From a bacterium (GTDB lineage Bacteria; BMS3Abin14): a stretch of 64,000 bases of DNA. Positions 35,405 through 52,609 of the stretch are shown piece by piece; the stretch's first letter is position 1; every line of letters begins with the position of its first letter. Both the position numbers and the translations under genes were made by a program. The notes beneath the pieces are model-generated. The model did no database searches. It saw only the letters and a list, made by a program, of their open reading frames with translations, and was not told where the DNA came from. The stretch is taken from NCBI GenBank assembly GCA_029210545.1, contig JARGFV010000001.1:3500-67499 (forward strand), read 5' to 3'.

Positions 35405-36719
35405 CTCCCCCGTTTTCAGCGACCTGCCCGGCAAGACCACCCGGAAGCTGCTGATCAAGTTCCCGGACAACGGCCTTGAACTGTTCAAGATCCGCCCCTG
35501 GCACACTTGTGGCTCTCGGTACGCTGATCCTCCGGGGGTCCACATATTTGTTGTTCCGGTACATGGCGAAGTGAAGGTGAGGGCCGGTTGCGCGCCCGGA
35601 GCTCCCGACGTACCCGATGACCTGCCCCTGCCGCACCTGGGTGCCCACTTTCATACCTGACGCGAAGCTGTTCATATGGGCATAGGCTGAGGAGTACACC
35701 GAGTTGTGCCGGATCTTGATGATCCGGCCGTTGGCTTCATCCCGCTTTATCATGACCACCTTCCCGTCACCGATAGACATGATCGGTGTCCCGGTGGGTG
35801 CCGCGTAATCCACACCCAGGTGGGGCACTACCTTGCCGGTCACAGGATGAAGCCGACGGGCGGAGAACCCGGAACTGATCCTTTGGAACCGGAGGGGTAC
35901 CTTGAGGAACTGTTTTCTGAGGCTGCCCCCTTCCTCATCGAAATAATCTTCCAGCCCGCTCCCCGGACTGTAAAGGAACGCCCTGTGAGTGGTTTTGTTG
36001 TTGACGAACCTGGCGGCCTCGATCCTTCCGTACCTGACGAATTCACCGTCCCGGTAGTATTTGTCGACCACAACCGCAAAGGAATCTCCGTTCCTCAAGT
36101 CCCTGAAAAAATCCACCTGCCACGCGAATATATCTGCGAGGTCCATAGCCAGGGCCGGCTTCTCACCGATGGATTCCACCGCGGCGAACAGGGAATCCTC
36201 GATAACCCCGGAGATGGGCTCCCGGACGATTTCATACGGTATGGGTTCGATCGAGATCACCGGGTCTCCCTCACCGAACGCCACCCTTATGAACCTCATG
36301 TCATCCGGTTCGTACTGATATTCGACAAGCTGCTCCTCTTCGTAATGGAGCCGGTAGGTTCGACCGGCCACGAGACTCGACGGCCTGATGCCATCGACCC
36401 TGGTCCCGGCGATCTGGAGGATCTCAGGATCCGGAACACCGTCGGCCTTGAGGATGTCGTAAAGAGTGTCTCCTCTGCGGACCACCTTGTTCGTCACCGA
36501 TATGACGGGTTCCGGTTCGGCGGCGGAGGGAGCCTCCCCGGCTACAACGTCGGTGATAAGGGGGCCGGAAGGCTGCATGATACGGGCCTGGGGAGAAAAG
36601 GCCGGCCTGCTCACACACAGAACGCCAAGACCGAGAACAGCCAGCACGAGATAACGGGAACGGACCCGGGGCCGGTCCCTCAGGTGGGTATTGCGTTTGG
36701 GCAGCGGGTTATGGATCAC
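35385..36719 (-). CDS. M23 family metallopeptidase with an OapA/LysM-like N-terminal domain
   Basis: HLGVDYAAPTGTPI ... GSSGRATGPHLHF (HxxxD ... HxH). Confidence 0.8.
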   Translation of the reverse strand: MIHNPLPKRNTHLRDRPRVRSRYLVLAVLGLGVLCVSRPAFSPQARIMQPSGPLITDVVAGEAPSAAEPEPVISVTNKVVRRGDTLYDILKADGVPDPEILQIAGTRVDGIRPSSLVAGRTYRLHYEEEQLVEYQYEPDDMRFIRVAFGEGDPVISIEPIPYEIVREPISGVIEDSLFAAVESIGEKPALAMDLADIFAWQVDFFRDLRNGDSFAVVVDKYYRDGEFVRYGRIEAARFVNNKTTHRAFLYSPGSGLEDYFDEEGGSLRKQFLKVPLRFQRISSGFSARRLHPVTGKVVPHLGVDYAAPTGTPIMSIGDGKVVMIKRDEANGRIIKIRHNSVYSSAYAHMNSFASGMKVGTQVRQGQVIGYVGSSGRATGPHLHFAMYRNNKYVDPRRISVPRATSVPGADLEQFKAVVRELDQQLPGGLAGQVAENGGDADVLR

Positions 36720-37048
36720 TATTCCCAGACCTTTTCGGCCACGAACAGGGCGACGATGGTTTCCCGGTCCCCGTCGTCTTTATCCTGGAGGTACCCGTAG
36801 AAAACCTCTTCCAGCTCCCTTAACGCCATATCGTGGACCTTCACGATGGGATAAAAACCGGGCGTGGCCTCGGGGAGGGTCACGGAGAGCATGTTCCGGA
36901 CTGCCAGGCCGCGGATGGCCCCGATGGCGTAGTCCCGGCCGTACCCCGCCAGTATCTCTCGTACCGACCGCAGGAGTTCATCGCGCCCTCCCTTAATTTG
37001 CGCCACCGTCTTCCCCTTTGATCCTTTCCAGGCTCTCAAGGCGCGCAT
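36719..37048 (-). CDS. Hypothetical protein
   Basis: ORF in operon context. Its stop overlaps the M23 peptidase start. Confidence 0.3.
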   Translation of the reverse strand: MRALRAWKGSKGKTVAQIKGGRDELLRSVREILAGYGRDYAIGAIRGLAVRNMLSVTLPEATPGFYPIVKVHDMALRELEEVFYGYLQDKDDGDRETIVALFVAEKVWE

Positions 37049-38018
37049 CCACTTCCTTCAGGTAGGTTCCCAGCTTTTTGTTTCCAGGATCAAGGTCATA
37101 GGCTGCCTCCCACACATCCCTTGCCTTGACGAGTTTGCCGGCTGAAAAAAGCTTCACGCCCAGGAGCCTTGCAAACTCCACTACTTCGGGAGTGGTACCG
37201 TCATCCGGCCTTGAAAGGACGAGAACGTAACGGACATGACCGGCGGCCACATCGATGTCGCCCTTCTGCTCGGCCTCACGGGCAACCAAGAACCTCTGGG
37301 CGACGAGATCGAGCCTTCGCCGGCCAACCTGCTCGAGCATCTCCTCCCCCCGGGTCCCGAGGCTTGTAGAGGCGCCGCTCTCGGTAAGGAGCTTTTCGGC
37401 ATCATCGAACCGGCCGGCCTTCATATGCTCCTCGGCCTGGGCCAGGACCTTCCTGACGTCGAGCTCCTGGCGGGCTTCCCCCATGGCAACCTGGAGCCTG
37501 TCGGCCTCGGCTTGAAGCGCCTTGTCATCAGGCGCCAGCGCCTGTGCCTCACCGATCCGTTTCAGGGCGCCGTCAAGGTCCCCAAGCGATTCCAGGTACT
37601 GGGCTTCACCCTTCAGGCCGTTGATCCCTGCCTCAATGACATTGTCCAGGTTTTTCATGAGGTTCTGGACCCAGTAATATCTGGGGTAGATCTGGAGGGC
37701 CTTTTCCAGGTTGGCCCGGGCCGAGAGGAGGTTCCCCTCTTTCCTTCTCTTGAAAGCTTTCCGGACAAAGTTGTCGGCACGATCCACCTTGGAGCGGGAG
37801 TAAGAGACCCTCTGGGCAATATTCTCCTGGCATGTCCGGTCAGACCGCACCAGTTCGTCGTAGGCATCGGCGGCAGGCTTGTGCTCACCAGTGCGGGAGA
37901 GGGTCAAGATGCGGCTGCACTCTGACCGGCGTCCCGCACCGGCGCCAACGAGGGCGCAACCCGTTGCCGAGAGAAGGAAGACGGCCGCCACCGCCGCGAT
38001 CAGCAGCTTCTGGCTCAT
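36993..38018 (-). CDS. TPR-repeat lipoprotein
   Basis: Start MSQKLLIAAVAAVFLLSATGC with a lipobox, after GGGAGG. TPR-like helical repeats. Confidence 0.55.
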   Translation of the reverse strand: MSQKLLIAAVAAVFLLSATGCALVGAGAGRRSECSRILTLSRTGEHKPAADAYDELVRSDRTCQENIAQRVSYSRSKVDRADNFVRKAFKRRKEGNLLSARANLEKALQIYPRYYWVQNLMKNLDNVIEAGINGLKGEAQYLESLGDLDGALKRIGEAQALAPDDKALQAEADRLQVAMGEARQELDVRKVLAQAEEHMKAGRFDDAEKLLTESGASTSLGTRGEEMLEQVGRRRLDLVAQRFLVAREAEQKGDIDVAAGHVRYVLVLSRPDDGTTPEVVEFARLLGVKLFSAGKLVKARDVWEAAYDLDPGNKKLGTYLKEVDARLESLERIKGEDGGAN

Positions 38019-39379
38019 CCCACCTCCCGGCATATGTCCTCAACGATCCCCTCGCCGTCGAGCTGACTGAAAAGCTCCACAAGATGGGGGTCGAACTGTT
38101 TTCCCTTTCCCTCATCGATCCGGAACAACGCTTGGGCCTTGGTAAGAGCCTTCCGGTACGGCCTTGTCGTAGTCATGGCATCGAAGGCGTCGACCAGGAG
38201 GATGATGCGGGCAGGCAGGGGGATCTCATCTGCCTTTAAACCGTCAGGATAACCGGACCCGTCGAAATGTTCGTGGTGGTGCCGGACATACAGTCCGACC
38301 TTGTGCAGGGATGACAGGGGGTTGAGGATCCTGGCTCCGATCTCGGGATGGCCCTTCATCTGGAGGGTCTCTCCAGCGGTGAGGGGGCCGACCTTTCCCA
38401 CGACACCCGCCTCGACCCCTATCTTGCCGACGTCGTGGAGGATGGCCGCCAGCTCCAGTTCCCCGAGCTGGACCTCGTCCATATCCAGGCGCTCACCCAT
38501 GGCGACAGAGATCCGCCCCACCCTGTCACAATGACCTCTTGTATAAGCATCCTTGGCTTCCACAGCAGCGGCCAGAGCGCTTATGGTCTCCTTGAAATTG
38601 CGCTCGATCTGGCGTCTTGCGGTATGCAGCTGGCCGACCATCTCGTTAAAGTGCCTCGAAAGACGGCCGACCTCATCATGGCTGATGTCCTGCACCCGGA
38701 CGGTCAGATCCCCCGATCCAAGTGCCCTCACTGCTTCCTCCAGCCTCTCCACTCTTTTGACGTGAACCCCTGTAAGGAAAAAGGTCCCCACAACACCAAA
38801 CGCGGTCCCCAGGCTCAGCGGGAAAAGCAGCCCGATGGCGGTGCTCCTCATCGCTTGCCGGATGTGGCCGGCGCCCAGGGCGACCACCGCTGTTCCCACC
38901 CGCACATCTTCGACCATAATGGGCATCGATGACTGGATGATATCCGTCCCGGGGTGGGAGACCCCTTGATCCAGCACCTCTCCCGTCCGTGCGGGGTTGG
39001 AATGGTAAAGGATCTTGCCCTGATGATCGGTGAGGTAGGCGTAGGAGACATCCCTGTCGAGGGTGACTGACTCAACGATGGGCCCGAACCTCAGATCGTC
39101 CTGCGCGAGAAGAGGATCGCGCGCGTTGACTGCCAGGTTTGCGGCAAGGGAGCGGGCTCTCTTGTCCCCTTCGCGGGCCAGGAAAACCCACTGGTAACGG
39201 AGGAGAGCCAGGAAAACGAGACCGGTTACAAGGAAAAGCAGAACGGAAAAAGATAGTGCCACCTTCCATCTCAAGGAGAAAACGAGGCCCCTGGAAATCT
39301 GGCCGGGGGGACTGAACTGATCTGCCGAACCGGGCGGCATGAAACCTGTCCTGTCCATGAGGTTCTTTTTCTCGACCAA
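38015..39379 (-). CDS. HD-GYP c-di-GMP phosphodiesterase with a periplasmic sensor and HAMP domain
   Basis: HD...HDVGK...HHEHFDGSGYP motifs. Two TM helices flank a periplasmic domain. Confidence 0.8.
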   Translation of the reverse strand: MVEKKNLMDRTGFMPPGSADQFSPPGQISRGLVFSLRWKVALSFSVLLFLVTGLVFLALLRYQWVFLAREGDKRARSLAANLAVNARDPLLAQDDLRFGPIVESVTLDRDVSYAYLTDHQGKILYHSNPARTGEVLDQGVSHPGTDIIQSSMPIMVEDVRVGTAVVALGAGHIRQAMRSTAIGLLFPLSLGTAFGVVGTFFLTGVHVKRVERLEEAVRALGSGDLTVRVQDISHDEVGRLSRHFNEMVGQLHTARRQIERNFKETISALAAAVEAKDAYTRGHCDRVGRISVAMGERLDMDEVQLGELELAAILHDVGKIGVEAGVVGKVGPLTAGETLQMKGHPEIGARILNPLSSLHKVGLYVRHHHEHFDGSGYPDGLKADEIPLPARIILLVDAFDAMTTTRPYRKALTKAQALFRIDEGKGKQFDPHLVELFSQLDGEGIVEDICREVG

Positions 39380-39630: not shown

Positions 39631-40209
39631 CTATTCGAGGCCATCAATCTTCCCTCTGATCACGGTCTCCAGGGTGGTGTTGCCCACCGTGAAGCGGTCT
39701 CCGGTTCCAAGCTTTACGGTCATGACCCTTTTTCCCTGGTAAAAGGTCCCGTTGGTGCTCCCAAGGTCCTCGATAACAAAACGGTCCCCGAAAACCCGGA
39801 CATGGCAATGCCGACGGGAGACTTCGGGATCGTTCAGGTTGATGTCGTTACCGGTCCGCCCCACCGTAACCCGGGGCGCCGTGAGAAGGAACTCTTCTCC
39901 CGTCTGGACATCCCTGAAAAGCGCTTCGTCCTCCCCCCGGATGAACGGGTCGGTTCCTGACACCTCTTCCAGAAGCGCTGACACTTCTGAGCCGCTCTGG
40001 TCGACCTCGGAGAAATCGTAAGCAATGGTCTGGCCGAAATCGGCACCAGACGACCTGGTCAGGGGAACCGAGGCACCCGGGCTGCTTCCCCTGGGAGGGA
40101 TAAGGATGACCTGGCCGCAGTTGGGGCAGTTCGCCCTTGCCCCCGAGGGGGGGATTTTCTCGTCGGCGATCCTGTAGCTCGTGTTACAGGTGGGGCATGT
40201 GAGTTTCAA
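39631..40209 (-). CDS. Zinc-ribbon (CPxC...CPxC) plus FHA domain protein
   Basis: N-terminal CPTCNTSYRI...CPNCGQV. C-terminal FHA motifs VTVGRTGNDINLNDPEVSRRHC...GSTNGTF. Confidence 0.75.
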   Translation of the reverse strand: MKLTCPTCNTSYRIADEKIPPSGARANCPNCGQVILIPPRGSSPGASVPLTRSSGADFGQTIAYDFSEVDQSGSEVSALLEEVSGTDPFIRGEDEALFRDVQTGEEFLLTAPRVTVGRTGNDINLNDPEVSRRHCHVRVFGDRFVIEDLGSTNGTFYQGKRVMTVKLGTGDRFTVGNTTLETVIRGKIDGLE

Positions 40210-40317: not shown

Positions 40318-43107
40318 TTACCTGTAAATCTCGGTAGTCGATTTCGTAAAAGTCCGGCCGTCGAACTTGTACACTCCTGCCTCGGTCCCGAACCACTTGT
40401 TGTCGGCAAGATCCAGGGCCACCACGTTGACCGTCACTTTGGGCATCCCCTGGGCATCCGAGAAACGGACCCACTTGCTGCCGTCGAACCGGGCCGTTCC
40501 CTGCCCAAGGGTCCCCACCCAGACGTTCCAGCGTCCATCCACAGCCACTGACAGGACATGGTCGGAGGGCAGGCCGTCAGCGGTAGTGAAAATCCGGGTC
40601 TTTTTCCCTTCCTGTCTCAGGAGACCGGCATCCGTCCCGATCCAGAACACGCCGTTGGCGTCCATCGTCATGGAGGTCACGTTGTTGCTGGGCAGCCCCT
40701 GCTGCATTGTCCGCACGGTGAACTTGCTTCGGTCATAAAGAGCCAGTCCCTTGTCCGTACCGAACCAGATGTTGTCGAGAGGGTCGACGTACACCGAATT
40801 GATCACATTGCTTGGAAGACCGTCACTGTAATCGTATGTCACCCAGTTGTTCTTCCCGTCGAACTGGGAAACTCCGCGGTCGGTTCCCAACCAGATGAAA
40901 CCGAGGCGATCAACCGCAAGCGCCTTGACCGTGTTACTTATGAGGCCCTTGGCGGAGGTGTAGTTCTTACGGCTTTTGCTTTCGATATCCACCCTGAAAA
41001 GCCCCTCCGTTCCGCCGACCCACAGGTAGTCACCCTGGATGACACTTGGGTGGATGAAAACGCCGTTGGAATTGTCCCGCCAGATCCCGCTGGAGAGCCG
41101 GTACGCTGCCGTTTTTACCTTCTCCCGATTTCCCGCCTTGTCCACAGCGAAATATTTCACCGTGATATCGTCGTTGAGAGAGAGGGGCTTTGTGTAGGCG
41201 GGTGCCTGGTCTGACGGCTGCGAACCGTCCAGGGTATAGCGAATCCTTGCGCCCTCCTCGGATTTCAACTCCAGGATAATGGGTGGGTTGTATTCCCCGG
41301 GAGCAGGAAATGGCAACGTAAACGGCGCTATCGTGTCGATGAAATATTCAGCGACCTGAGCCGGCTCCTTGTTCCCGGCGCTATCCACCGAATAATAGGA
41401 GAGCTTCTCCGTGCGGTCTACCACAAAAGGTCCCGCATAGGCTGTAAAATCGTTCACCCCGGCCCGGCGGACAAATATGGTGCCCTGCTTCTCCGAAACG
41501 AGGGTGACGCTCACCGGACGGTTGAAGTAACCGGGGTCCGGCTCGATGCGTGTGGAGGGCGGCGTCGTGTCGAAGCTGTACCGCTCGACCTGGATCTCCT
41601 CACGGTTGCCTGAATCGTCGGTCCCGTAGAACTTGAGGACCGTATCCTTTGTGATACGGACGGGACCCCGGTATCTCGGGGAAGCTTCTGTGGGTGAGAT
41701 CCCGTCTGTAGTGTACCGGATCACAGCACCCTCTTCACCGACAAGACTGACTGTGACCTCGCCCGAGAAAGTGCCTCCAGGCGGCTGTGCGGCGGTATCC
41801 GGCGGTGTGCTGTCCAGAACGTATTCCTGGCTCCGGGGCTGGCTCCGGTTACCGACCCTGTCCACTGCGAGATAGGTCAGAACTGTATTTTTCTCGATGG
41901 TTATCGGACCCTGGTAAGGGGACGACCTGTCGGAAGGAGTGGTGCCGTCAAGGGTGTAGAAGATCTCCGCCGGTTCAGACGCCTCTATCTTGACCCTGAT
42001 CCTGCCCGAATAGTCACCCCCCGGGGGACGGGGCTGGACGGTTGGGGGCTGCGTGTCGATGACATATTGGGCCGTCACAACGGGACTTCGGTTCCCGGCG
42101 GCATCCACGGCCATAAAAGAAACCACAGTATCCGCTGCCAGCCTGAGGGGGGACCGGTAAACAGGGGAGGACAGCGTGGCCTCCCGGCCATCCATCTCGT
42201 AATGGATCTGTCCCCTTTCGCTGGAGGTCAGTGTGACCACGGTCGGTTTTCCGAACGCTCCTGCCGGCGGCTTGGCAATCACAGTGGGAGGCTGGCTGTC
42301 AATGACGTAGTTCTCCTCGCGCACATCTTCCCGGTTGCCTGCCTCGTCGATGGCGAAGAACCGCAGGACACCGCTGCGGACGAACTGCAGCGGGCCGGAG
42401 TACCGCGGCGAACCTGTGGACGGCCTGCTGCCGTTGATGGTGAAGTGGATGGTAGTGCCCTCTTCGCCGGACAGGGACACCGTGACGGGAGAATTGAAAA
42501 GCCCACCTGACGGTTCCGCGAGGGTCACGGGCTTTGTGGAATCGAGGGTGATGAGGTACGTTTCCTTGCGGGCCTCTTCCCGGTTGCCCGCTTCGTCCGT
42601 AGCGAAGAAACGCAGGGTCGTGTCCCTTCTCATGGCTACGGGGGAAGTGTAAGTCGATGATCCGGGGCCGGGTTCGGTGCCGTCTGTCGTGTAGGAGATG
42701 ACGGCTCCCTCCTCGGACTTGAGCCGAACGGACACGGGGTGGAAGAACTTCCCTCCTGACGGCAGGGCCGTGGTCACAGGCGGTTCTGTGTCAAGGCGGA
42801 CGGCGTAACTGGCAGACTGGACAGTTGACCTGTTACCGAACCTGTCCTCGGCGAAATAGCCCACCCTTGTGTCCCGCTTGATCCGAACAGGGGAAAGGTA
42901 TGGCATGGGCTGCCCATCATCCAGTGCGATGAAGACCGATGCTCCCGGTTCACTGGACAAGACGACGGATATGACCTCGTGGTACTTTCCCGGAACGGGC
43001 TGGATCTGGACCTGGGGAGGAGTCCGATCGATGGGCCAGAGCCAGGCCAGAACTGCCAGGAGAGCAAACAGAATGGCCAGAGACAGGTAACTTTTGCCTT
43101 TCATCAA
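40318..43107 (-). CDS. Secreted 929-aa protein: about ten chitobiase/beta-hexosaminidase C-terminal-like (CHB_HEX_C-type) modules plus a C-terminal Reg_prop-like beta-propeller
   Basis: Signal peptide. Repeated ~80-aa units (P.GG.Y..P..V.L.SEEGA.I.YT.DG..P...S..Y..P....DT.L.F.A.D.AGN.E). C-terminal WxGT/Y_Y_Y-like repeats. Confidence 0.65.
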   Translation of the reverse strand: MMKGKSYLSLAILFALLAVLAWLWPIDRTPPQVQIQPVPGKYHEVISVVLSSEPGASVFIALDDGQPMPYLSPVRIKRDTRVGYFAEDRFGNRSTVQSASYAVRLDTEPPVTTALPSGGKFFHPVSVRLKSEEGAVISYTTDGTEPGPGSSTYTSPVAMRRDTTLRFFATDEAGNREEARKETYLITLDSTKPVTLAEPSGGLFNSPVTVSLSGEEGTTIHFTINGSRPSTGSPRYSGPLQFVRSGVLRFFAIDEAGNREDVREENYVIDSQPPTVIAKPPAGAFGKPTVVTLTSSERGQIHYEMDGREATLSSPVYRSPLRLAADTVVSFMAVDAAGNRSPVVTAQYVIDTQPPTVQPRPPGGDYSGRIRVKIEASEPAEIFYTLDGTTPSDRSSPYQGPITIEKNTVLTYLAVDRVGNRSQPRSQEYVLDSTPPDTAAQPPGGTFSGEVTVSLVGEEGAVIRYTTDGISPTEASPRYRGPVRITKDTVLKFYGTDDSGNREEIQVERYSFDTTPPSTRIEPDPGYFNRPVSVTLVSEKQGTIFVRRAGVNDFTAYAGPFVVDRTEKLSYYSVDSAGNKEPAQVAEYFIDTIAPFTLPFPAPGEYNPPIILELKSEEGARIRYTLDGSQPSDQAPAYTKPLSLNDDITVKYFAVDKAGNREKVKTAAYRLSSGIWRDNSNGVFIHPSVIQGDYLWVGGTEGLFRVDIESKSRKNYTSAKGLISNTVKALAVDRLGFIWLGTDRGVSQFDGKNNWVTYDYSDGLPSNVINSVYVDPLDNIWFGTDKGLALYDRSKFTVRTMQQGLPSNNVTSMTMDANGVFWIGTDAGLLRQEGKKTRIFTTADGLPSDHVLSVAVDGRWNVWVGTLGQGTARFDGSKWVRFSDAQGMPKVTVNVVALDLADNKWFGTEAGVYKFDGRTFTKSTTEIYR

Positions 43108-44129
43108 GCCTCCCTTTCAGGTGGTCCGTCATAATAGTAACGGCCGTACTTGACGTAACCCGACACGTTTCCCAGTCGGGGATCATCCTGTGTCTTGAGG
43201 AGCGCCAGTTCTCCGCGGATCAGGGGCTGAAGATATTCGAAGAGGGCCTCTCCCCCTCCGCCGGCGAGAAGGACCACATCCAGGTCCCAGTCATCGACCC
43301 AGATCCTCTCCATGTCGCTCACAACGGCCGTCGCCAGCCTGCCGAACACCTCGTTCTTGACCTTGGTCAGGTCGTATTCGGCCCCCCTGATCTTGATACT
43401 TCCCTCCCGGACAGCGTCGTATAGCCGGTAGATCTCAACGTTCACACCGCTCATCTCGTTGAGAGCCTCGGAGATGAACTGGAACCCCTTGGAGATGCCG
43501 GTATCGGTTGTCCGGCTGCCCCTCTCGGAGTGCCTGAGCCCCTTGCATACGGTAAAATCGGTTGTTTTGAACCCGATATCGACGACCCCTATCTTCTGCC
43601 GGGCCATGTCCGGTCTCAGGAGGGTACCGTCCTCACGGAAAAGGTAGTCGACGAGGCTGCCATAAGGCTGGGGGATCACCTTCACGCGGTTGACGGACAG
43701 TGCCATCTCCCGGCTTTCAGAGCCGTTGTGAACCTTCAGTTCATGTTCACCGGAAAGGGCAGCCGTCAGCTTGTCCTTGTACTCCATGTAGTAGCCCACG
43801 GGAAGGCCGGTCACGACGTTAACCGGGACCCTGCTCGGGGCGATCTTGGCCAGCCCGGCCAGAGCGAGGGTCTTGAACTGCTGGGTGACCATCTGTGCCT
43901 GATCGAGGGTGAACTGCCGGACCCGGGACTCCGACTCGGCAAGATCCCCCACGAAAAAAGAGCGGTCCCCCAGGCTCATGTGCAGGCCGGAAACACCTTC
44001 CCCCGAAAAAAAGTTCTCGTCCATGGACCTCGGCTGAGGCTCACCTATTATCGACTTGAACAAGACGGTAGTCTCACCGTCCGTGGCCTTGGTGAAACCG
44101 AAACCGACGTCAATTCCTACCATCAGCAT
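43104..44129 (-). CDS. Actin-fold ATPase of the ParM/StbA-like family
   Basis: Phosphate-1 MVGIDVGFGFTKA, phosphate-2 VVDIGFKTTDF, adenosine motif LLAGGGGEAL. Start at M18 of the ORF. Confidence 0.55.
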   Translation of the reverse strand: MLMVGIDVGFGFTKATDGETTVLFKSIIGEPQPRSMDENFFSGEGVSGLHMSLGDRSFFVGDLAESESRVRQFTLDQAQMVTQQFKTLALAGLAKIAPSRVPVNVVTGLPVGYYMEYKDKLTAALSGEHELKVHNGSESREMALSVNRVKVIPQPYGSLVDYLFREDGTLLRPDMARQKIGVVDIGFKTTDFTVCKGLRHSERGSRTTDTGISKGFQFISEALNEMSGVNVEIYRLYDAVREGSIKIRGAEYDLTKVKNEVFGRLATAVVSDMERIWVDDWDLDVVLLAGGGGEALFEYLQPLIRGELALLKTQDDPRLGNVSGYVKYGRYYYDGPPEREA

Positions 44130-45981
44130 AAGTGCCCTCCCCGGATCCGGCGCTGCGAACCGTGTCCATGACATCGTCACTGATCCTGTACTGCTGCTGG
44201 AATTCCCTCTCCAGTTCCTCGATCCTCATCATGTCGATGCCGCTGCTGTCGATGAACTCGTCCCTGGCTGACGCGTCCCTGGACTTGATCGCCCGGGGAA
44301 GGACCGAACCGAAATAGATCCGCTCCGTCTTCAGGTCCTCGAGGGTCTGGCGGAAGAAGATCTCCGGAACATCCGGCCTCACCAGTCCCCTCGAGACAAG
44401 CATCTTGCGGACATCCGCGATAAAGGAAGTTTCCTCCTCGAATCCCTTGAGAGAACGTCCGAACTTCTTCAGCCACCTGTCCATTGCGGTCTTGACGATC
44501 CTGTATTCACGTTCCTCGCGAACAAGGTCCTCCATGAAGATGGTGACATCCTGGAGGGAACGGTCGCCTGTTTCAATGCTGGAGACCCCCTCGAATAGAA
44601 ATTCGACCTTTTTCCGCCCGTACTGCGGGAGGTAGAGGTTCTTCATGACCGGAACGATGAAAAGATCATGAAAAAGGTTTTCCTGGACCTCGTCGAAGAT
44701 TTTTTTATTCAGGAGAAGGCTGCGCAGCTTGTCTTCCGGCAGTTTCTCCTCTTCGTGGAACGCGAGCCGGTTCACGGTATGATAGACGTTGTCGAAACGG
44801 TCGAAGAAAGTGACGATGTTACCGAACTCCTCCAGGCTGTCGGTGCTGCCCGTCTCCATGCTGAGTTCGTCGCACTCCTTTCCCACCTCGATGAGGATGC
44901 GGTCAAAAGCCGACTCCCGCTGTTCAAGAGCAAGGAGCTTGGACTTGAGGAGCTTGAGGAGATCCTCTTTTTCAATGCGCTCACCAACCTGCCTGGCCTG
45001 GATAAGGATCGCTTCCAGAACCGCGCGGACCTCCACGAGGTAAGCCGGTTCGTCAACAGCGAGGATCTCGCGGTCGCCGATGAGCTTTTCATCCAGGGAG
45101 TTGAGCAGGTTGACGGGGATCCCCTTTCGAAGCGCCACCGTCCTGATCCGCGAGATGCGGGCGCGGTCGTCAAAGAGAACCTCGTCCCTGCCCCTGATCT
45201 GGACGAGGACCGAACGGTACTCCTCAACCACCTGCCTGTTTCCCGGGGACCTGTACATGACGTCGATCTTCATCCGTTCCTGGGAATAGGGATCGATAGC
45301 CAGGCTGGCGGCCAGGTCTTCCAGGGCGGCAGTCTCCTCATCGCCTATGGTCTGTGACGCCGCGTACAGATCCTCGATCTTGCGGTAAAAAAGCAGGTGG
45401 GAACGGTTGACGAACTTCATGAGGAAGAAAACCGATGCCAGCTTTGACCAGTGTGTCCTGAGTTCGTCAACGATCCGGGAGTCATCCTCATCCTTGTTAA
45501 GGGGAAACCGCTTCAACGAACGCCCGAGAATGCGGAGGATCTCTTCCTGCTGTTTTTTCAGGGGGGCCGGGGAAAGGAACTGGACGAAGAAGTAATAATT
45601 GAAGACCGCATGACCGCGCAGGAATATATGCCGGTAATCGACCCGGGCCGTGGTGTCGTCGGAAAAGATGATCTTTCCGGGATCATCGTGCCGCACGCCG
45701 AAAACCACCAGACGGTTGATCACATCCTGCTTGACCAGATCTTCAATGGGCTCATCCACACCGAACATGTAGGGGCAAAAGGTCCCTCCATTGCCCGTAT
45801 GGACAAGGGTCTCCGGACCGAGAAGGAACTCGTTGCCGCCAAGGAAAAACCTGTGGTGGGCCACGCCTTCTCTCTCCACCAGTTCGTGGAAATAGCGGCC
45901 GTCCAACCCTTCGCCGGACAAGGTCGCGAAGAACTCCTTGTCGCCGCCCACTTCGCCGTGGATCCTGAGATCTTTTATCAT
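44110..45981 (-). CDS. Large hypothetical protein (~624 aa), not assigned to a family
   Basis: Long ORF co-directional with the ParM-like gene and overlapping it by ~20 nt. No recognised motifs. Confidence 0.45.
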   Translation of the reverse strand: MIKDLRIHGEVGGDKEFFATLSGEGLDGRYFHELVEREGVAHHRFFLGGNEFLLGPETLVHTGNGGTFCPYMFGVDEPIEDLVKQDVINRLVVFGVRHDDPGKIIFSDDTTARVDYRHIFLRGHAVFNYYFFVQFLSPAPLKKQQEEILRILGRSLKRFPLNKDEDDSRIVDELRTHWSKLASVFFLMKFVNRSHLLFYRKIEDLYAASQTIGDEETAALEDLAASLAIDPYSQERMKIDVMYRSPGNRQVVEEYRSVLVQIRGRDEVLFDDRARISRIRTVALRKGIPVNLLNSLDEKLIGDREILAVDEPAYLVEVRAVLEAILIQARQVGERIEKEDLLKLLKSKLLALEQRESAFDRILIEVGKECDELSMETGSTDSLEEFGNIVTFFDRFDNVYHTVNRLAFHEEEKLPEDKLRSLLLNKKIFDEVQENLFHDLFIVPVMKNLYLPQYGRKKVEFLFEGVSSIETGDRSLQDVTIFMEDLVREEREYRIVKTAMDRWLKKFGRSLKGFEEETSFIADVRKMLVSRGLVRPDVPEIFFRQTLEDLKTERIYFGSVLPRAIKSRDASARDEFIDSSGIDMMRIEELEREFQQQYRISDDVMDTVRSAGSGEGTYADGRN

Positions 45982-46346
45982 GGGTTCAGATCCATGTTGT
46001 TTACGGGATTCAAGACCATTCGCACCCGAGCCAGACCTCATTTCATTGAGCACCAGTGGCCGGAACAGTCAAATTCCGACCTCCTTCGACAGGCCCGGGG
46101 GTCGTTTCCAGCCTCCACCTGATCGGCTGCATTCAAGTGGCTATTAGAGAACCTCGTAAAAGCCTCTTCGAGCCATTTTACGAGCCCATAAAACTTTTCT
46201 GATGTTATATCATTTTCGGGTGGAAGTCTTGAGGTTAAATCCCGCCCGGATGGTTGCCGCACTTGACATGGCACCGGTTCATGATAGTAATATCTCCACC
46301 CGTTTGCCGCAGGGGAAAATGCACATAACGTGGAAAGGCTGCCCTT

Positions 46347-46733
46347 ATGCTCGACCGGCCCCAAAAAAAGATCCTCGTCATCGAGGATGACCCTGATATC
46401 AGGAGCCTGACAGGATTCATTCTCCGGGACGACTACGAGGTGATCTCCAGCGAGGACGGGCGCAAGGGGATGGAAAAGGCCAGGGAGGAAAGGCCTGACC
46501 TTGTTCTCCTGGACATCTACATGGCCGGGTTATCCGGGTTCGAGGTTTGCCGTATGCTCAAGGAGGAACCGGAAACGGCCTCGATCCCGGTCATCATGCT
46601 GACCGCCGGGGCACAGAAAGATGAGGTGTCGGAAGGGTACGCCTCGGGAGCCGACGATTACATCATCAAACCTTTTGAACCGGGAGAGCTGATTGAAAGG
46701 ATCGAAAAACTACTTTTGAGATCCAGGATCTAA
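46347..46733 (+). CDS. Stand-alone CheY-like response regulator receiver
   Basis: ILVIEDD, DLVLLDIYMAG, TAGAQK: Asp pocket, phospho-Asp, and Thr/Lys. Confidence 0.85.
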   Translation: MLDRPQKKILVIEDDPDIRSLTGFILRDDYEVISSEDGRKGMEKAREERPDLVLLDIYMAGLSGFEVCRMLKEEPETASIPVIMLTAGAQKDEVSEGYASGADDYIIKPFEPGELIERIEKLLLRSRI

Positions 46734-46819
46734 AATCCAGGATCCGGAAGACCACTCCCCACAAAATCAAAGACATACCTATCCAGACTGATCCCATGGG
46801 ATGCCCTGGATCTTGGATC

Positions 46820-47686
46820 TTAGATCCTGGGCCTTGGATGGGAACTTTCCGCTATCAGGAAAACAAGATCACGAACCACCTTTGCCGCCACCGCCCCCGA
46901 CGGACCCCCCATCCCCGCCAGCGGACAGTATTCCACCACGTCAGCGCCAACGATCCTGGCACCCCTCAGGGGCATCAGGGCATCGCGCAGCTGAGGATAG
47001 CTCAGACCGCCGGGCTCAGGTGTCCCGGTTTCGGCCATGACAGAAGGATCCAGGACGTCAAGGTCCACGCTGAGGTAAACAGGCCGCTGACCGACGATTC
47101 CGGCAAGGTCACCGGCATCGGCGAGAAGCATTCCGTGCTTCCTGGAAAAAAACCATTCTTCCCTGGTTCCGGACCGGATACCGTACTGACAAAGGCCCCC
47201 CGGTCCCACCAGGTCGAACACTCTCCTCATGACAGTGGCATGGGAGTGCTTCCGCCCTTCGTAATCGTTCCTGAGGTCCATGTGCGCATCCATCTGGATA
47301 ACCACGAGGTCAGGACAGGTTGCGAGACACCCCTCCACCGCCGGAAGGGTAACGAGGTGTTCACCCCCCATAAGGAGAGGGGATTGCCCGGCGGCCACAG
47401 CCGCACCTACAGTTTTTCTGACACATTCCGAAACCGCGGTCCAGGCGGATGCGGGAGCGACAATGTCCCCGGCATCCGCCAGGCTTAACTCCTCCAGGTC
47501 GGCATCGAACACGGGGCAGTAGCTCTCCAGGACAGCAGACCACATCCTGATGGCCCCCGGGGCAAACCTGGCTCCCGGACGGAAGGAGGCCGTCTGGTCG
47601 AAAGGCACACCCATGAGAACGATATGAGAGCTGTCCACAGCCCCGTCGGCGGACAGGTAACCGGAAAGGCCCGTACGCAATGTCAT
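46820..47686 (-). CDS. speB: Agmatinase (ureohydrolase family)
   Basis: Mn-binding motifs DAHMDLR, SVDLDVLDP, and GGLS. Confidence 0.85.
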   Translation of the reverse strand: MTLRTGLSGYLSADGAVDSSHIVLMGVPFDQTASFRPGARFAPGAIRMWSAVLESYCPVFDADLEELSLADAGDIVAPASAWTAVSECVRKTVGAAVAAGQSPLLMGGEHLVTLPAVEGCLATCPDLVVIQMDAHMDLRNDYEGRKHSHATVMRRVFDLVGPGGLCQYGIRSGTREEWFFSRKHGMLLADAGDLAGIVGQRPVYLSVDLDVLDPSVMAETGTPEPGGLSYPQLRDALMPLRGARIVGADVVEYCPLAGMGGPSGAVAAKVVRDLVFLIAESSHPRPRI

Positions 47687-48528
47687 TTCCCGGAAATCTC
47701 CTTCCCGAGAGCATCCAGGACGAACCTCGGGAGGGCGAAACTCGCCAGATGGATATCCCCGTTGTAGTACCTGGTCAGGATCTCTTTCCTGCCGCGGTAG
47801 ACCGGGAGTGAATCCTCACCTTTCGCTCCCATGAGAAAACTCCAGGTCCCTCCAGGATAGGTGGTCACCGATGCCAGATAGAAGCCGGATACCGGATAGA
47901 CCCCCCTGATCCGTTCATGAACGTCGACCATGAACGGCAGGTGATAAAAAGGCGATTCGGACTGGGAGACAAAAACGCCTCCCGGGCCGACAGCCTGCTC
48001 ACAGCTTCGGAAAAACCCCTCCGTGAACAGGGCTTCGGCAGGACCCACCGGGTCCGTGGAATCTATCAGGATAACATCGTAGCTTCCCGGCGGCGCCTCG
48101 GCCACGAAACGGACACCGTCATCGTAGACGATCCTCGTCCGGGGATCGCCAAGACCCGCGCTGATATCGGGCAGGTATTCGAGGGCCGCTTCGACCACCA
48201 TCCGGTCGATCTCGACCAGGGTGACCTCTTCCACTTCCGGGTGTTTCAACACCTCGCGAACCGTTCCGCCATCGCCGCCGCCAATGATGAGGACCCGCCT
48301 GGGATCCCGGTGGGTGTTGAGGGGGATGTGAGCCAGCATCTCGTGGTAGACGAACTCGTCACGTTCGGTGAGCATGACCAGACCGTCCAGAAGCATCATC
48401 CTTCCGAACTCGTGTGTATCCAGGATGTCCAGGGTCTGGTACTCGCTTGCCCCGTGGTAGAGAGTCTTTTTGACCTCCATGGTGATCCCGGAATGGGGGG
48501 TATGCTTTTCCGTATACCAGATACTCAC
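47683..48528 (-). CDS. speE: Spermidine synthase
   Basis: [10 protein letters not shown] and the canonical N-terminal region MSIWYTE...YHE. Confidence 0.9.
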
Positions 48529-49007
48529 TTGAGCCTCTCCGAACTCCAGAGCACGACCGCCGCAAAGACCGCACCGGTATTTTCCACGTGATGGGATGCA
48601 GCGGCACTCTCGATATGCTTGACCTCAAGCCCTCTCATTTTCAGGCCTTCTGACGCCATGTCGCGACAAATCTGTTCGATCTCTTCAGACGGACCTGTAG
48701 CGCTGTACTCCATGATAAGACCGGGCATAGCCGGATCCGACGGAAAGGCGGCAGCCACGGCGGCAGAGATCGTCTGCCCCCTGATACTGCTGCCCATGGA
48801 GGCGTAGGCGACCGGGACCAGGGCACCAAGGGGCAGGGAAACCGGTTCGATGCGCTCGGCTCCCGGCGGCACGATACTGCTCATCTTGACCAGGTTGGTG
48901 TTGCCGATCCCGGAGGCGAGCAGGGCTCCGTCGAAAGCGTTGAGGGGCATGGTCCCTTCCGACGAGCCGCTGGCGAAGAAATAAACATCAGGGGTCCTGG
49001 TGATCAT
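48525..49007 (-). CDS. pdaD: Pyruvoyl-dependent arginine decarboxylase
   Basis: ~160 aa. [37 protein letters not shown] matches the PdaD self-cleavage region. Confidence 0.7.
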
Positions 49008-50287: not shown

Positions 50288-52390
50288 CTATGGCGGAGTC
50301 TCCACAATCCACTTCCCGTCGGAATAGCGTGTCACTCCCGTCCTCGTAGCGATCCAGACCTCACCATCCGGATCGGGGGCGATGAGAACGATCCCGGTCC
50401 CTGGAATGCCATCCTCTTTCGTATACGTTTTCCACTTTTCCCGGTCGTAGACGGAAACACCTTTGGGAGTGCCCACCCAGGTGTTCCAGTCTGAATCCAC
50501 GGCAACCGTCCTGATCTCGTCGTCGACCATACCGCTTTCCTTTGTAAAGATATGCCACTCCCTCGCGGGAGTATATTTGGCAAGCCCTTTCCGGGTCCCG
50601 AACCACCGGTTCCCGGCGTAATCCACAGCGATGCACAAGACCGTATCGCCGGGCAGACCATCCTTTGCCGTCAGCTTTTCCCTAACGGCTCCGTCCTTGA
50701 TGCGGACGACCCCCTTTTCCGTGCCCGCCCAGATAGAACCGTCCCGGTCAACACCCAGGCCGAGCACTTCCCTGGCCGGCAACCCCTCGTCCCTCGTGAA
50801 AGTGACGAACCCTTCCCCTTCCCTGAAGCGGTTAAGCCCCTCGTCGGTGGCGGCCCACAGGTCACCGGCCTCATCGATGACCATATCGTTGACAACGGTC
50901 CCCAGAAGTCCCTCCGTATCACCCACGAAGCTCCTGTCCCCCGACCCGACCCGATACAGGGCCAGACCGGACTCTGTCCCCATCCAGAACGTCTTGCCGT
51001 CGGTCACGCTCGGGAGGAGGAAGACACCCCTGGCGTACTTGCGCCAGACTCCGTTGACCAGGGTATACCTGTGGGTCTGTATCCTCTCCATGTTTCCTGT
51101 ACGATCAATGGAAAAGAACTTGAGGGTAGTGGGCCTGATGAATGTAAAACCGGAAAAGTAGGTGGGGCTTTCGGTATCCGGGTCGTAGCCGTCGAGGGTA
51201 TAATGGATCCGGGCGCCTTCCTCGGTCCTCAGGGTCACCCTGATGGGCGGGGGGTACTCACCACCCAACGGATCGGCTACAGTCACCGGCGCTTCATCAT
51301 CGAAAAGGTAGGTCTCCTCGTGGACATCTTCACTGTTACCGGACTGGTCGGAGGAAAAGAACTTCAGGACCGTATCGTTCCTCAGGACGAGAGGGTCCTT
51401 GTAGACGGGAGACTGCTCGCCAGGCTCGGTACCGTTGAGGGTGTAGAAGACGATGGCCTCCTCGTCGGAAACCGTTATCCTGACCGTCAGGGGAGGCGTG
51501 TAAAAGCCTGTGCCCGGATAAGCTTCTGAAAGGGGCGGTTCCTGATCCAGCCTGTAGAACTCATCGTAAACCCTGCTCCGGTTTCCCCCACGGTCTATCG
51601 CCAGGAATTTGAGCCGTGTGCTTTCGGTAAGCCAGAACGGCCCCTCGTAAAGCTGCGACATCTCTGTAGGATCCGACCCGTCAAGCGAGTAATAGATATC
51701 GGCTTCCTCGTCTGCGAAAAGCCTGAGGAGGTCGCCCGACCTGTAATTGGCGGGCAACGGGCTGACGCTGGCTTTGGGGGGAGTCGTATCCACGAGCCGG
51801 TCCGCGAGCCTGAACATGTACGACTCTTCCCGGATCGGCTCGCGGGAACCGTCCCTGTCAACGGCAAAGAACTTCAGCCTGGTGTCCACGGCAATGCTCA
51901 GGGATGTACGGTAGATATCGCTGTCGGTGGAAGGGTCTGAACCGTCCATGGTGAAGTAAATGGTGGCATCCTTCCGGGTAGAAAGAGACACCCTGACCTT
52001 CTGGTTATAGATCCCTCCCGGTGGGTGCGCTACGGTTCGCAACGCATCGGCGGACGGAGATTTCATCCGGATCCTGTAGAACGCCTCCTGGACGCTGCCC
52101 CGGCTCCCGTCCCTGTACACCACGAAGTAACGGATAACGGTATTGTCTGCGACCCTGATGGGATCTTTGAATACGGGAGAGCCCATGCTGGGTTCCGAAC
52201 CATCGAGGGTAAAGTAAACCTGGCGGGAAGGGTCGGTCTCGAAACGGACCTCGATGGAATCAGGATATTCACCGGGGGCCGGCGTCAGGGGGACCTCCTG
52301 GGCCACCGCCGGGAGAGGCGCCAGCCAGAGAAATACCGCTGCAGCCACAACGGTGGTTATCTGCAAAACGGTTCGTTTTGAAAGGTTCAA
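50288..52390 (-). CDS. Secreted CHB_HEX_C-repeat plus beta-propeller protein, paralog of 40318..43107
   Basis: Same module architecture as the 929-aa protein. Putative TTG start at 52390 after GGGAGG; the ORF is open to 52465. Confidence 0.6.
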   Translation of the reverse strand: MNLSKRTVLQITTVVAAAVFLWLAPLPAVAQEVPLTPAPGEYPDSIEVRFETDPSRQVYFTLDGSEPSMGSPVFKDPIRVADNTVIRYFVVYRDGSRGSVQEAFYRIRMKSPSADALRTVAHPPGGIYNQKVRVSLSTRKDATIYFTMDGSDPSTDSDIYRTSLSIAVDTRLKFFAVDRDGSREPIREESYMFRLADRLVDTTPPKASVSPLPANYRSGDLLRLFADEEADIYYSLDGSDPTEMSQLYEGPFWLTESTRLKFLAIDRGGNRSRVYDEFYRLDQEPPLSEAYPGTGFYTPPLTVRITVSDEEAIVFYTLNGTEPGEQSPVYKDPLVLRNDTVLKFFSSDQSGNSEDVHEETYLFDDEAPVTVADPLGGEYPPPIRVTLRTEEGARIHYTLDGYDPDTESPTYFSGFTFIRPTTLKFFSIDRTGNMERIQTHRYTLVNGVWRKYARGVFLLPSVTDGKTFWMGTESGLALYRVGSGDRSFVGDTEGLLGTVVNDMVIDEAGDLWAATDEGLNRFREGEGFVTFTRDEGLPAREVLGLGVDRDGSIWAGTEKGVVRIKDGAVREKLTAKDGLPGDTVLCIAVDYAGNRWFGTRKGLAKYTPAREWHIFTKESGMVDDEIRTVAVDSDWNTWVGTPKGVSVYDREKWKTYTKEDGIPGTGIVLIAPDPDGEVWIATRTGVTRYSDGKWIVETPP

Positions 52391-52609
52391 ACGGGCCTCC
52401 CGGGGCGAAAAATTGATGGTCCAGATGAGGTCGACGTTGCGCCATATTAGGGAATCCACCGGCAAATGGCAACGGGAACCCGAAACCAGGGCCTGGTTTC
52501 GGGTATGACTCCTCCGGAGAAAAACCGTAATGCGAGGTTATCCTGTAAATAGCTCTGCGATTCGACACTTAAACCGCCGAATCGCAGAGAACCTGCTATA
52601 ATCTTTGCC

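Follow-up and report, generated by a model that had tools for sequence, protein, structure and literature searches.

A ParR-less chromosomal ParM-type actin gene in a conserved envelope-related gene cluster of an uncultured bacterial lineage

Introduction

Chromosomal ParM-like actins with functions other than plasmid maintenance have been recognised only recently, in the chromosomal ParMs (cParMs) and in the CorMR system, both reported in 2025 and each with a ParR-type partner. The cParMs Dh-cParM1 and Cb-cParM have been proposed to act outside plasmid segregation (PMC12270681), and a role of this kind, in cell shape, has been shown for CorM of Anabaena, which carries a 40-aa N-terminal disordered region and is brought to the membrane by CorR through an amphipathic helix (bioRxiv 10.1101/2025.06.27.661541). 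Dh-cParM1, CorM and pCBH ParM, which are the nearest solved relatives of the protein described below, all form filaments (PMC12270681; bioRxiv 10.1101/2025.06.27.661541).

Here we analyse a ParM-type actin gene (gene B) and its surroundings in a window of 64,000 nucleotides (contig JARGFV010000001.1; all coordinates are positions in this window). A preliminary description of this DNA had placed gene B between a large gene of unrecognised type (gene A) and a gene for a surface repeat protein (gene C), and had proposed that they could form an undescribed cytoskeletal or surface-organisation module.

Results

Organisation of the gene cluster

Gene A heads a run of nine genes on the minus strand, 13.4 kb in length (45981 to 32606), the tail of which consists of genes for an M23 endopeptidase (G) and a GAF/sigma-54 regulator (H) (Table 1). 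Genes A and B overlap by 20 nt, as reported in the preliminary description, in which A was one residue longer (624 aa); B and C share a single nucleotide (TGATG, the start of C being preceded by AAGGGAGG), and G and H overlap by approximately 20 nt when the likely start of H is taken. The start codon of B follows a strong Shine-Dalgarno sequence, GGGGAGGG (44142-44135), with a 5-nt spacer. The longest reading frame of A comprises 647 aa from a GTG at 46053, and the family profile begins at the methionine encoded at 45981. Gene C is co-directional with A and B, as described earlier, with one residue fewer than the 929 then counted, and the zinc-ribbon/FHA gene D, also correctly placed beyond a gap, lies 108 nt from it.

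A stand-alone receiver gene is divergent from A across a 365-nt intergenic region, and is likewise present in cluster version L093 (L numbers denote versions of the cluster). A search for sigma-54 promoter-like sites gave none upstream of A, and fewer matches than chance across the whole window; scans for sigma-70 promoters and terminators showed no excess over the shuffled expectation, and the Rfam search returned a tRNA only.

Table 1. Coordinates and predicted products of the cluster genes and of neighbouring features.
Feature	Position	Strand	Length	Description
Gene A	44110..45981	-	623 aa	ATG 45981, TGA 44112-44110; TIGR04442/PF27907 (CHP04442), cytoplasmic
Gene B	43104..44129	-	341 aa	ATG 44129, TGA 43106-43104; ParM-type actin-like ATPase
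Gene C	40318..43104	-	928 aa	ATG 43104; N-terminal membrane anchor, CHB_HEX_C_1/Fn3_assoc Ig-like repeats, C-terminal Reg_prop beta-propeller
Gene D	39631..40209	-	192 aa	MJ0042-type zinc-ribbon and FHA (phosphothreonine-binding); without membrane segment
Gene E	38015..39379	-		sCache-HAMP-HD-GYP-type (HD_5) membrane sensor
Gene F	36993..38033	-		TPR protein; lipoprotein-like N-terminus (…LSATGC…, read from the translation)
Small ORF between F and G	36719..37048	-	109 aa at most	
Gene G	35385..36719	-		Csd3_N2 and M23 peptidase; putative ShyA/ShyC/MepM-like peptidoglycan DD-endopeptidase
Gene H	32606..35404	-	~932 aa	GAF (GAF_2) and sigma-54-interaction AAA+ regulator (Sigma54_activat)
Gene C'	50288..52465	-	725 aa	Paralogue of C; 5 CHB_HEX_C_1 repeats and Reg_prop
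Response-regulator receiver	46347..46733	+	128 aa	Stand-alone; divergent from A

Gene B encodes a ParM-type actin

The product of B matched the Pfam families ALP_N (8.5e-36) and MreB-like_C (6.7e-16), and its family alignment shows no variation in the phosphate-1 (GIDVGFGFTK), phosphate-2 (DIGFKTTD) and adenosine (LAGGGG) motifs. Among PDB sequences, its matches were to pCBH ParM (3.5e-29), Dh-cParM1 (6e-22) and CorM (2e-13), with ParMs ranging from 3.5e-29 to 2e-6, while all NCBIfam equivalog models were matched below cutoff (score/cutoff: ParM, PRK13917, 98.9/417; PRTRC_D, 94/214.8; FcmB, 64.9/300). The structure model (pLDDT 85.9) is closest to Dh-cParM1 (TM 0.81), with CorM nearby (TM 0.77); the top 27 Foldseek matches were of the ParM, Alp or Ta0583 type, and MreB matches fell roughly 12 orders of magnitude behind those to ParMs. 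An assignment to MreB was rejected on this ground and for want of an MreB_Mbl match, and assignments to Hsp70, PilM or sugar kinases were rejected on the ParM-type profile, PDB and Foldseek matches, so that the ParM-like classification of the preliminary description stands. As also stated there, canonical mreB is encoded elsewhere in the window (25602-24565, 498.7 bits), followed by mreC, mreD and the genes for PBP2 and RodA in an operon at 25602-20241, 18 kb away.

Like the cParMs and CorM, B is a chromosomal ParM-like protein; unlike them, it has no gene for ParR or CorR beside it, and is flanked instead by the TIGR04442 protein and an envelope protein. It also lacks the N-terminal disordered extension of CorM, its first residue standing three residues ahead of the phosphate-1 motif. 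No other gene of the cluster is as well conserved as B (65-81% identity), and its family shows 45-51% identity across phyla and 68-77% within Desulfuromonadales. A search seeded with a member from that group (P0202) gave 1500 proteins at E <= 1e-40. Four loci of this actin family elsewhere lack A, the actin gene being solitary there. The B family consists of strongly conserved chromosomal ParM-like actins without ParR, which stand alone in other phyla.

The A-B locus is not a partition cassette

The preliminary description had found neither a ParR adaptor nor any other plasmid-partition gene, and dedicated searches agreed: neither the 45982-46346 spacer nor the gaps between the genes hold a ParR-like reading frame, no RHH/ParR family match was obtained, and neither an iteron array nor parC is present, the only repeats in 45900-46900 being weak two-copy ones of 10-21 nt. 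The window carries housekeeping genes (mreBCD, pbp2, rodA, serA and polyamine synthesis genes), and the relative CP070719.1 is a 2.78-Mb chromosome. Since ParR and iterons are missing, the surroundings are of the housekeeping kind, no plasmid ParM exceeds 25% identity to B, and no relatives of A were found in plasmids or viral contigs, the A-B locus is not a partition cassette. In comparison with the ParMRC systems (R1 ParM, pCBH ParM, pSK41 ParM), B has an actin fold of the ParM type, as they do, and keeps its ATP-binding motifs intact, whereas its locus is chromosomal, has no ParR or parC and places B between proteins of 623 and 928 aa, and conservation within its family far exceeds that among plasmid ParMs.

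A type II (ParM-based) system for DNA segregation, of an unconventional kind in which A stands in for ParR as the DNA or cargo adaptor, would suit both the ParM type of B and the usual position of an adaptor gene next to parM. It is nevertheless very improbable, given the lack of RHH proteins and centromere-like repeats, the chromosomal context, the failure of profile searches to match A to any DNA-binding domain, the absence of an actin gene near A in the great majority of its genomes, and the existence of a subclade that has lost B and retained A.

Gene A belongs to an uncharacterised family

Gene A had been described as devoid of recognisable domains; it is in fact a full-length member of TIGR04442/PF27907 (546.8 bits, with a cutoff of 150, over profile positions 1-607 of 608), although this family, found in 513 species genomes in a scan of a genome collection, is itself uncharacterised. 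A literature search for 'TIGR04442' or 'GPMC system' found no papers. The profile search with A against 1.84 billion representatives yielded only 226 matches of a single architecture, none of them an informative fusion. Some of these matches are stand-alone C-terminal halves. The alignment of 55 family members contains 64 invariant columns, and no Pfam family recurred among these members at E <= 5. In agreement with the preliminary description, Pfam, PDB-sequence and fold-profile searches matched A to no known enzyme family, the A profile giving noise only against PDB sequences.

The predicted structure of A comprises an N-terminal PP2C-like beta-sandwich (approximately residues 1-200) followed by an all-helical alpha-solenoid. 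The PP2C-like call came from weak Foldseek matches (TM ~0.3, E 0.02), in which 107-142 residues were superposed on PP2C-type structures at 6-12% identity, and it would liken this domain to PP2C (PPM) phosphatases, SpoIIE, the RssB C-terminal domain and TAB1. With an FHA gene nearby, such a fold could point to Ser/Thr phospho-signalling, in which A, as a divergent active PP2C phosphatase or as a pseudophosphatase adaptor of the RssB C-terminal domain or TAB1 type, would act jointly with D in the control of B, the HD-GYP sensor or H. However, the conserved PP2C motifs with metal-binding aspartates (motifs 1, 2, 8 and 11) were undetected in A, and the only invariant acidic residues within residues 1-200 are E51 and D81, fewer than a PP2C metal site needs. 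The hhalign probability of the domain against a small PP2C profile (four sequences, two of them checked only by alignment to the other two, which were tool-derived) was 0.1%, and Pfam gave no PP2C or SpoIIE match for any of the 55 family members at a threshold as loose as E <= 5. As, in addition, the window yielded no Hanks-type kinase and D is absent near A outside the clade described below, phospho-signalling of this kind appears quite unlikely.

Other genes of the cluster

The protein encoded by C matched CHB_HEX_C_1 (1.3e-118, seven scored stretches), Fn3_assoc (5e-86) and Reg_prop (4.6e-16), as well as OmpL47-type and PorZ-like domains. Its N-terminus, read from the translation, is hydrophobic and leaves only about five cytoplasmic residues, so that direct contact with A or B through a cytoplasmic domain is impossible. 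The paralogous gene C', separated from A in the window by a polyamine operon, is also upstream of A in L005, L007, L008, L013, L015, L092 and L093. Gene D (FHA, 2.3e-18; Zn_ribbon_4, 1.2e-14) follows C in every cluster version that extends that far. The product of E, with HD_5 (5.2e-35), HAMP and sCache_3_2 domains, scored 139.7 bits against the model of the NosR-family c-di-GMP phosphodiesterase, below its cutoff, and is probably a c-di-GMP phosphodiesterase to judge from its sequence; the gene is present in L003, L005, L011, L015, L092 and L093 and missing from L007 and L009. Gene F is kept at 33-36% identity in L005, L015, L092 and L093, and the position between the TPR and M23 genes is occupied by called genes of 95, 105 and 95 aa in L005, L092 and L093, respectively. 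Finally, the G product (Peptidase_M23, 5e-31; Csd3_N2, 1.3e-9) scored 226 bits against ShyC and 188 bits against MepM, both under cutoff, and G is kept in L005, L007, L009, L015, L092 and L093.

Conservation and the link between A and H

Nine independent versions of the cluster have the A-B-C-D order, with A identities of 53-77%, and at least 20 further metagenome contigs, identical in length in both, are common to the match lists of A and B. Flanking genes vary among the versions (L003, L007), and A-B-C-D remains unbroken. The lineage in which the cluster is conserved is uncultured and related to 'bacterium BMS3Abin14', and the conserved unit is larger than A-B-C-D, reaching over nine genes to the M23 endopeptidase and the GPMC-type sigma-54 regulator. 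The four genes first singled out keep their order over a deep clade, and B has been lost from one nested subclade (L013, L015, L092) in which everything else is kept; because these three versions lack only B, it is dispensable for the rest of the cluster. The A-B linkage arose once, in this single clade: more than 70 inspected A loci outside it (Geobacter, Desulfuromonadales, Nitrospirota) have no actin gene within 7 kb. In Nitrospirota, 14 loci have a gene for an Slt-like lytic transglycosylase that lies divergent to A.

The stable chromosomal synteny across genomes also bears on whether the locus is a mobile or defence island that carries an actin-like gene by chance. A weak, partial match of C to a DUF499 anti-phage model, confined to the Ig-like region, and a DUF772 transposase 30 kb away would fit such an island; yet A, B and D have no PADLOC match, A has no viral or plasmid relatives, and no integrase, att sites, variable genomic location or composition anomaly was found, which leaves this explanation scarcely credible.

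To judge from its sequence, H is homologous over its full length to the GPMC system transcriptional regulator (NF038230) but diverged from it, with 914.6 bits over positions 6-933 of 935 against a cutoff of 1200. Full-length comparison gives 40-42% identity between H and regulators whose genes follow A at a distance of 0-3 kb downstream in Geobacteraceae and Desulfuromonas; these regulators score 1500-1630 bits with the same model, and the A-H linkage is found in two phyla. The cluster resembles the GPMC neighbourhood of Geobacter and Desulfuromonas in having a full-length A, a homologous regulator and an association between the two. It differs in that H falls under the equivalog cutoff, genes B-G are situated between A and H, none of them being found in the Desulfuromonadales version, and the GPMC MBL-fold metallohydrolase (NF038231), encoded directly upstream of A in 22 Desulfuromonadales-type loci, had no tblastn match in either the window or the loci of the clade.

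This distribution could reflect co-transcription without physical partnership, in which B works alone, as its solitary orthologues in Desulfuromonadales presumably also do, A works with H as in Geobacter, and A and B are neighbours through a past insertion that operon compaction has preserved. Such an origin would agree with the solitary occurrence of both families elsewhere, with the clean loss of B in one subclade that retains A, C, D, E, F, G and H, and with the cross-phylum partners of A, which are H and the MBL hydrolase and not actin. The A-B gap of 109 nt in L003 speaks for it as well and means that tight coupling is not universal. On the other side, A-B-C is contiguous over deep divergence despite rearranged flanks, and the A-B junction is an overlap or a gap of at most 21 nt in eight of the nine versions, suggesting co-translation and matched stoichiometry. 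We regard co-transcription without partnership as a serious, if somewhat doubtful, possibility.

Discussion

The reading that we prefer, while putting it a little short of an even chance, is that B is an accessory cytoskeletal filament, not involved in DNA partition, that was recruited into a conserved envelope/peptidoglycan cluster framed by A and H. The envelope theme is recurrent, since the cluster brings together C and C' with a TPR lipoprotein and an M23 DD-endopeptidase and since a lytic transglycosylase gene adjoins A in Nitrospirota, and from this gene context a cytoskeletal or surface-organisation role of B is possible. We infer that B would polymerise with ATP into cytoplasmic filaments, and that these may help to place or organise the envelope and peptidoglycan-remodelling proteins of the cluster in this lineage, with the predicted alpha-solenoid of A as the likeliest cytoplasmic docking partner of B, in the place of ParR. 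The MreB elongasome (MreBCD, PBP2, RodA), in which an actin filament works with peptidoglycan-remodelling and envelope proteins, offers an analogy to this proposed role only, as B is not MreB and the window contains its own mreBCD-pbp2-rodA operon.

The dedicated module of actin, partner and surface protein envisaged in the preliminary description survives in part: its role is possible from gene context, but A is not specific to actin, as seen from its 513 genomes and the more than 70 loci without an actin gene, and the unit comprises nine genes. Being optional in the cluster, B may serve as a second cytoskeletal element, but it does not form the core of a new machine. A more far-reaching proposal, which we consider unlikely, is that of a ParR-independent chromosomal actin cytoskeleton, present in an uncultured phylum and solitary across Desulfuromonadales, that would use a PP2C-fold/alpha-solenoid TIGR04442 adaptor and, beside MreB, position the endopeptidase and envelope-spanning proteins under FHA, c-di-GMP and sigma-54 control. 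If true, this would be a second actin-based envelope organiser in bacteria.

A literature search combining ParM and Geobacter returned nothing relevant. The locus points to a large family of ParR-less chromosomal actins that, in one lineage, is built into an envelope/peptidoglycan cluster, and it provides the first contextual clues for the TIGR04442 and 'GPMC' genes, which hundreds of genomes from Geobacter, Desulfuromonas and Nitrospirota contain. Both families have cultured representatives in Desulfuromonadales: Geobacter sulfurreducens has a TIGR04442 member and Desulfuromonas versatilis the actin. Should these strains be genetically tractable, the hypotheses would be testable there, although the organism of the window is uncultured.

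Gene organization of the actin-containing cluster

The preliminary description of this locus, a large protein coupled to a ParM-like ATPase and followed by a surface repeat protein and a zinc-ribbon/FHA protein, was confirmed in every particular by the ORF coordinates, the Pfam and NCBIfam matches and the presence of a separate mreB operon (Table). The longest ORF of gene A opens at a GTG codon (46053), and the family profile begins at the methionine encoded at 45981. Genes A and B overlap by 20 nt, with GGGGAGGG five bases ahead of the ATG of B; the ATG of gene C and the stop codon of B have an A in common, and AAGGGAGG precedes the start of C. Gene D begins 108 nt after C and is followed by five more genes on the same strand, the widest gap inside the cluster being 251 nt and the overlap between G and H about 20 nt.

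A polyamine biosynthesis operon separates A from C', a paralogue of C. Among the loci compared in other genomes (L numbers), C' adjoins A in L093, L005 and L092, and L007 has only part of the polyamine set. Elsewhere in the window are two other c-di-GMP signalling genes, a transposase-domain ORF with a GC content of 0.53 (about 0.58-0.60 around it), and a radical SAM gene followed by a Memo-AMMECR1 fusion, which we take to be the 'AmmeMemoRadiSam' gene set with two components fused.

Table. Features of the actin-containing cluster and of other regions of the window
Feature	Coordinates	Strand	Length	Product or domains
Gene A	ATG 45981 to TGA 44112-44110	minus	623 aa	TIGR04442 protein
Gene B	ATG 44129 to TGA 43106-43104	minus	341 aa	ParM-type actin
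Gene C	ATG 43104 to 40318	minus	928 aa	N-terminal hydrophobic anchor, then seven scored CHB_HEX_C_1/Fn3_assoc repeats and Reg_prop propeller (Pfam, NCBIfam)
Gene D	40209-39631	minus	192 aa	Zn_ribbon_4 and FHA (Pfam, NCBIfam)
Gene E	39379-38015	minus		sCache-HAMP-HD-GYP sensor
Gene F	38033-36993	minus		TPR lipoprotein
Small ORF	between F and G	minus
Gene G	36719-35385	minus		Csd3_N2/M23 peptidase resembling ShyA/ShyC/MepM DD-endopeptidases
Gene H	35404-32606	minus		GAF and sigma-54 AAA+ regulator
C'	52465-50288	minus		membrane-anchored Ig-repeat/propeller protein
Polyamine operon	46820-49727	minus		AdoMet decarboxylase, pyruvoyl arginine decarboxylase, spermidine synthase, agmatinase
mre operon	25602-20241			canonical mreB-mreC-mreD-pbp2-rodA
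c-di-GMP signalling	14949-15650	plus		receiver-PilZ
c-di-GMP signalling	30415-31455	plus		GGDEF diguanylate cyclase
Radical SAM and Memo-AMMECR1	56195-59125	plus
Transposase-domain ORF	12276-13838	minus	520 aa	DUF772

The TIGR04442 protein and its neighbourhoods

Judged by its sequence, protein A is a member of the uncharacterised family TIGR04442 (546.8 bits over the whole profile, cutoff 150), and PF27907 (CHP04442) is present in all of its homologues. Genes for relatives were found in 513 species-level genomes, those in the 80 loci kept belonging, by record title, to Nitrospirota/Thermodesulfovibrionales, Desulfuromonadales/Geobacterales and unclassified MAGs. When 1.84 billion representatives were searched exhaustively with the profile, only 226 matches were returned, all of a single architecture of about 600-630 aa apart from a few stand-alone C-terminal halves, with no fusions among them. 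Seven proteins from the homologue searches (P0289-P0292 and P0301-P0303, 308-329 aa) match the C-terminal half only (profile positions about 311-611), and P0290, on a 1.6-kb JGI contig, is a complete gene and not a fragment. A literature search on the family found no paper.

The AlphaFold model of A (55 sequences; pLDDT 84.9, pTM 0.69) consists of a beta-rich N-terminal domain and an all-helical remainder, the latter matching only generic alpha-solenoids (CID, ENTH, MIF4G, HEAT). PP2C ranked first in Foldseek, weakly (E 0.02-0.1, target-normalised TM about 0.3). At the sequence level hhalign gave a PP2C probability of 0.1%, neither PP2C nor SpoIIE was matched by any of the 55 family members at a threshold as loose as E <= 5, and E51 and D81 are the only invariant acidic residues of the N-terminal domain. 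Membership of A in the PP2C family was rejected, there being neither a sequence-level signal nor a catalytic signature. From a predicted model with moderate scores, A may combine a PP2C-like fold lacking that signature with a scaffold domain. Phospho-signalling through the PP2C-like domain and the FHA protein is improbable, the weak fold match being its sole basis.

In nine Geobacteraceae/Desulfuromonas loci, a regulator 0-3 kb downstream of A is 40-42% identical to H over its full length. With 1500-1630 bits these proteins (930-970 aa) clear the cutoff of 1200 set for NF038230, 'GPMC system transcriptional regulator', and H itself stays below it at 914.6 bits. This linkage makes H, and not the actin, the deepest conserved partner of A; in the window's lineage the two are separated by genes B to G. 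An MBL-fold hydrolase gene lies upstream of A on the same strand (-41 to 101 nt) in 22 Desulfuromonadales-type loci, and the copy tested, from L057, passes NF038231, 'GPMC system MBL fold metallohydrolase'; this gene is found neither in the window nor in loci of the clade, the uncultured lineage that carries the window's cluster. No publication was found in a literature search on the 'GPMC system'.

The arrangement around TIGR04442 is repeated in L057 (3734-10901), L061 (4494-14716) and 20 other Desulfuromonadales-type loci, in the order MCP-like sensor, GPMC MBL-fold hydrolase, TIGR04442, EF-G paralogue (11 loci, gap -8 to 56 nt) and GPMC sigma-54 regulator; L061 has a PP2C-domain (RssB/SiaA-like) gene between the last two. 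In Nitrospirota, TIGR04442 is divergent from a TPR and Slt-like lytic transglycosylase in L030 (3836-5797) and 13 other loci, mostly with a gap of 20-148 nt, and trpE and trpG follow it by about 300-400 nt in L002 (10209-12247) and 17 others.

The ParM-type actin

Protein B matches ALP_N (8.5e-36) and MreB-like_C (6.7e-16), and its strongest matches among PDB sequences are pCBH ParM (3.5e-29), Dh-cParM1 (6e-22) and CorM (2e-13). For its model (pLDDT 85.9, pTM 0.84) the closest superposition is with Dh-cParM1 (TM 0.81), followed by the pCBH, Bt and pSK41 ParMs, CorM (0.77), Ta0583, Alp12, Alp7A and R1 ParM, the match to MreB being about 12 orders of magnitude weaker. All three nucleotide motifs (phosphate-1, phosphate-2, adenosine) are invariant in the family alignment. 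B falls under every NCBIfam equivalog cutoff, the closest plasmid ParM is 25% identical, and neither a ParR-like ORF nor an iteron array was found at the locus. B is thus of ParM type but is not a partition ParM, and a role of the locus in DNA partition is essentially excluded.

For a ParM, the conservation of this family is unusually high. The clade's own copies are 62-93% identical. Next comes a large group with 45-51% identity, whose named members are from Desulfuromonadales and Schekmanbacteria; a search with one Desulfuromonadales protein (P0202) as query gave 1500 proteins at E <= 1e-40, of which those nearest to it are 68-77% identical. In all four loci inspected, including the Desulfuromonas versatilis chromosome, B orthologues are solitary chromosomal genes amid housekeeping genes, with neither ParR nor A present. 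The neighbourhood in D. versatilis (L091:10001-11050, AP024355.1) is repeated in L088 (8001-9041), where the actin lies beside type IV pilus genes in the order minor pilins, PilY1, actin, RNase R, RibF, (AroE), PilB, PilT, PilC and PilS; in L089, PilZ-domain genes flank it.

Conservation of the gene pair and of the cluster

The order A-B-C-D is found in nine independent clade versions (the window, L003/L014, L005/L006, L007, L008, L009, L010, L011 and L093), with A identities of 53 to 77%. In eight of them A and B overlap or leave a gap of <= 21 nt, and in L003 the gap is 109 nt; between B and C, most versions show a start/stop overlap. At least 20 further metagenome contigs, matched by their length, are common to the A and B match lists. 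The clade is placed near 'BMS3Abin14' only by the identity of the MAGs in which the nearest versions of the cluster occur.

The conserved unit is larger than the A-B pair. L093 has the identical nine-gene order, L092 and L015 have the same order minus B, and L007 and L009 have A-B-C-D-G-H; no other gene of the cluster is as well conserved as B (65-81% identity). In L009 (9883-11415) gene C encodes only about 511 aa, with apparently fewer repeats and no propeller, and in L003 (13986-17836) the D-E pair is tandemly duplicated.

B, C and D are absent within 7-8 kb of A from all loci inspected outside the clade (L001, L002, L016, L018, L019 and L021-L087). Within it, A is directly followed by C without B in L013, L015 and L092, the last keeping all other cluster genes. 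A neighbour-joining tree places L013 and L015 inside the clade that bears the actin, a nesting that indicates B was lost secondarily; L092, not in the tree, was grouped with them by shared gene order and similar identity. The module of an actin and an unknown partner proposed beforehand therefore holds in part: A-B-C-D is kept in the clade, three versions of which lack B, and outside it A occurs with no B nearby.

Functional interpretation

The theme of the cluster is the envelope: C and C', the lipoprotein F, the endopeptidase G, periplasmic Cache sensing by E, and the Slt-like transglycosylase divergent from A in 14 Nitrospirota loci. The nearest solved relatives of B all form filaments (PMC12270681; bioRxiv 10.1101/2025.06.27.661541). 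Tentatively, and at somewhat less than even odds, we favour B as an accessory cytoskeletal filament that would have been drawn into a cluster of envelope/peptidoglycan genes bounded by A and H, where it may polymerise and where A would be its likeliest cytoplasmic docking partner. The main rival, plain co-transcription without a partnership of A and B, is a serious but lesser possibility; it draws support from both families being solitary elsewhere and from the clean loss of B in some clade versions. A mobile or defence island can be dismissed with near certainty.

In its likely working the locus is closest to the cParMs and CorMR, chromosomal ParM systems described recently, but it lacks their partner protein, and B lacks the N-terminal extension of CorM. 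Unlike ParMRC, it has neither the partner protein nor the centromere, and with respect to the NCBI 'GPMC' neighbourhood it is a diverged, incomplete relative. What is new here is a chromosomal ParM-like actin that lacks ParR and has a new genetic context. Study is warranted both of the orphan actin family, which is conserved, and of the uncharacterised TIGR04442/GPMC genes; cultured relatives have members of each.
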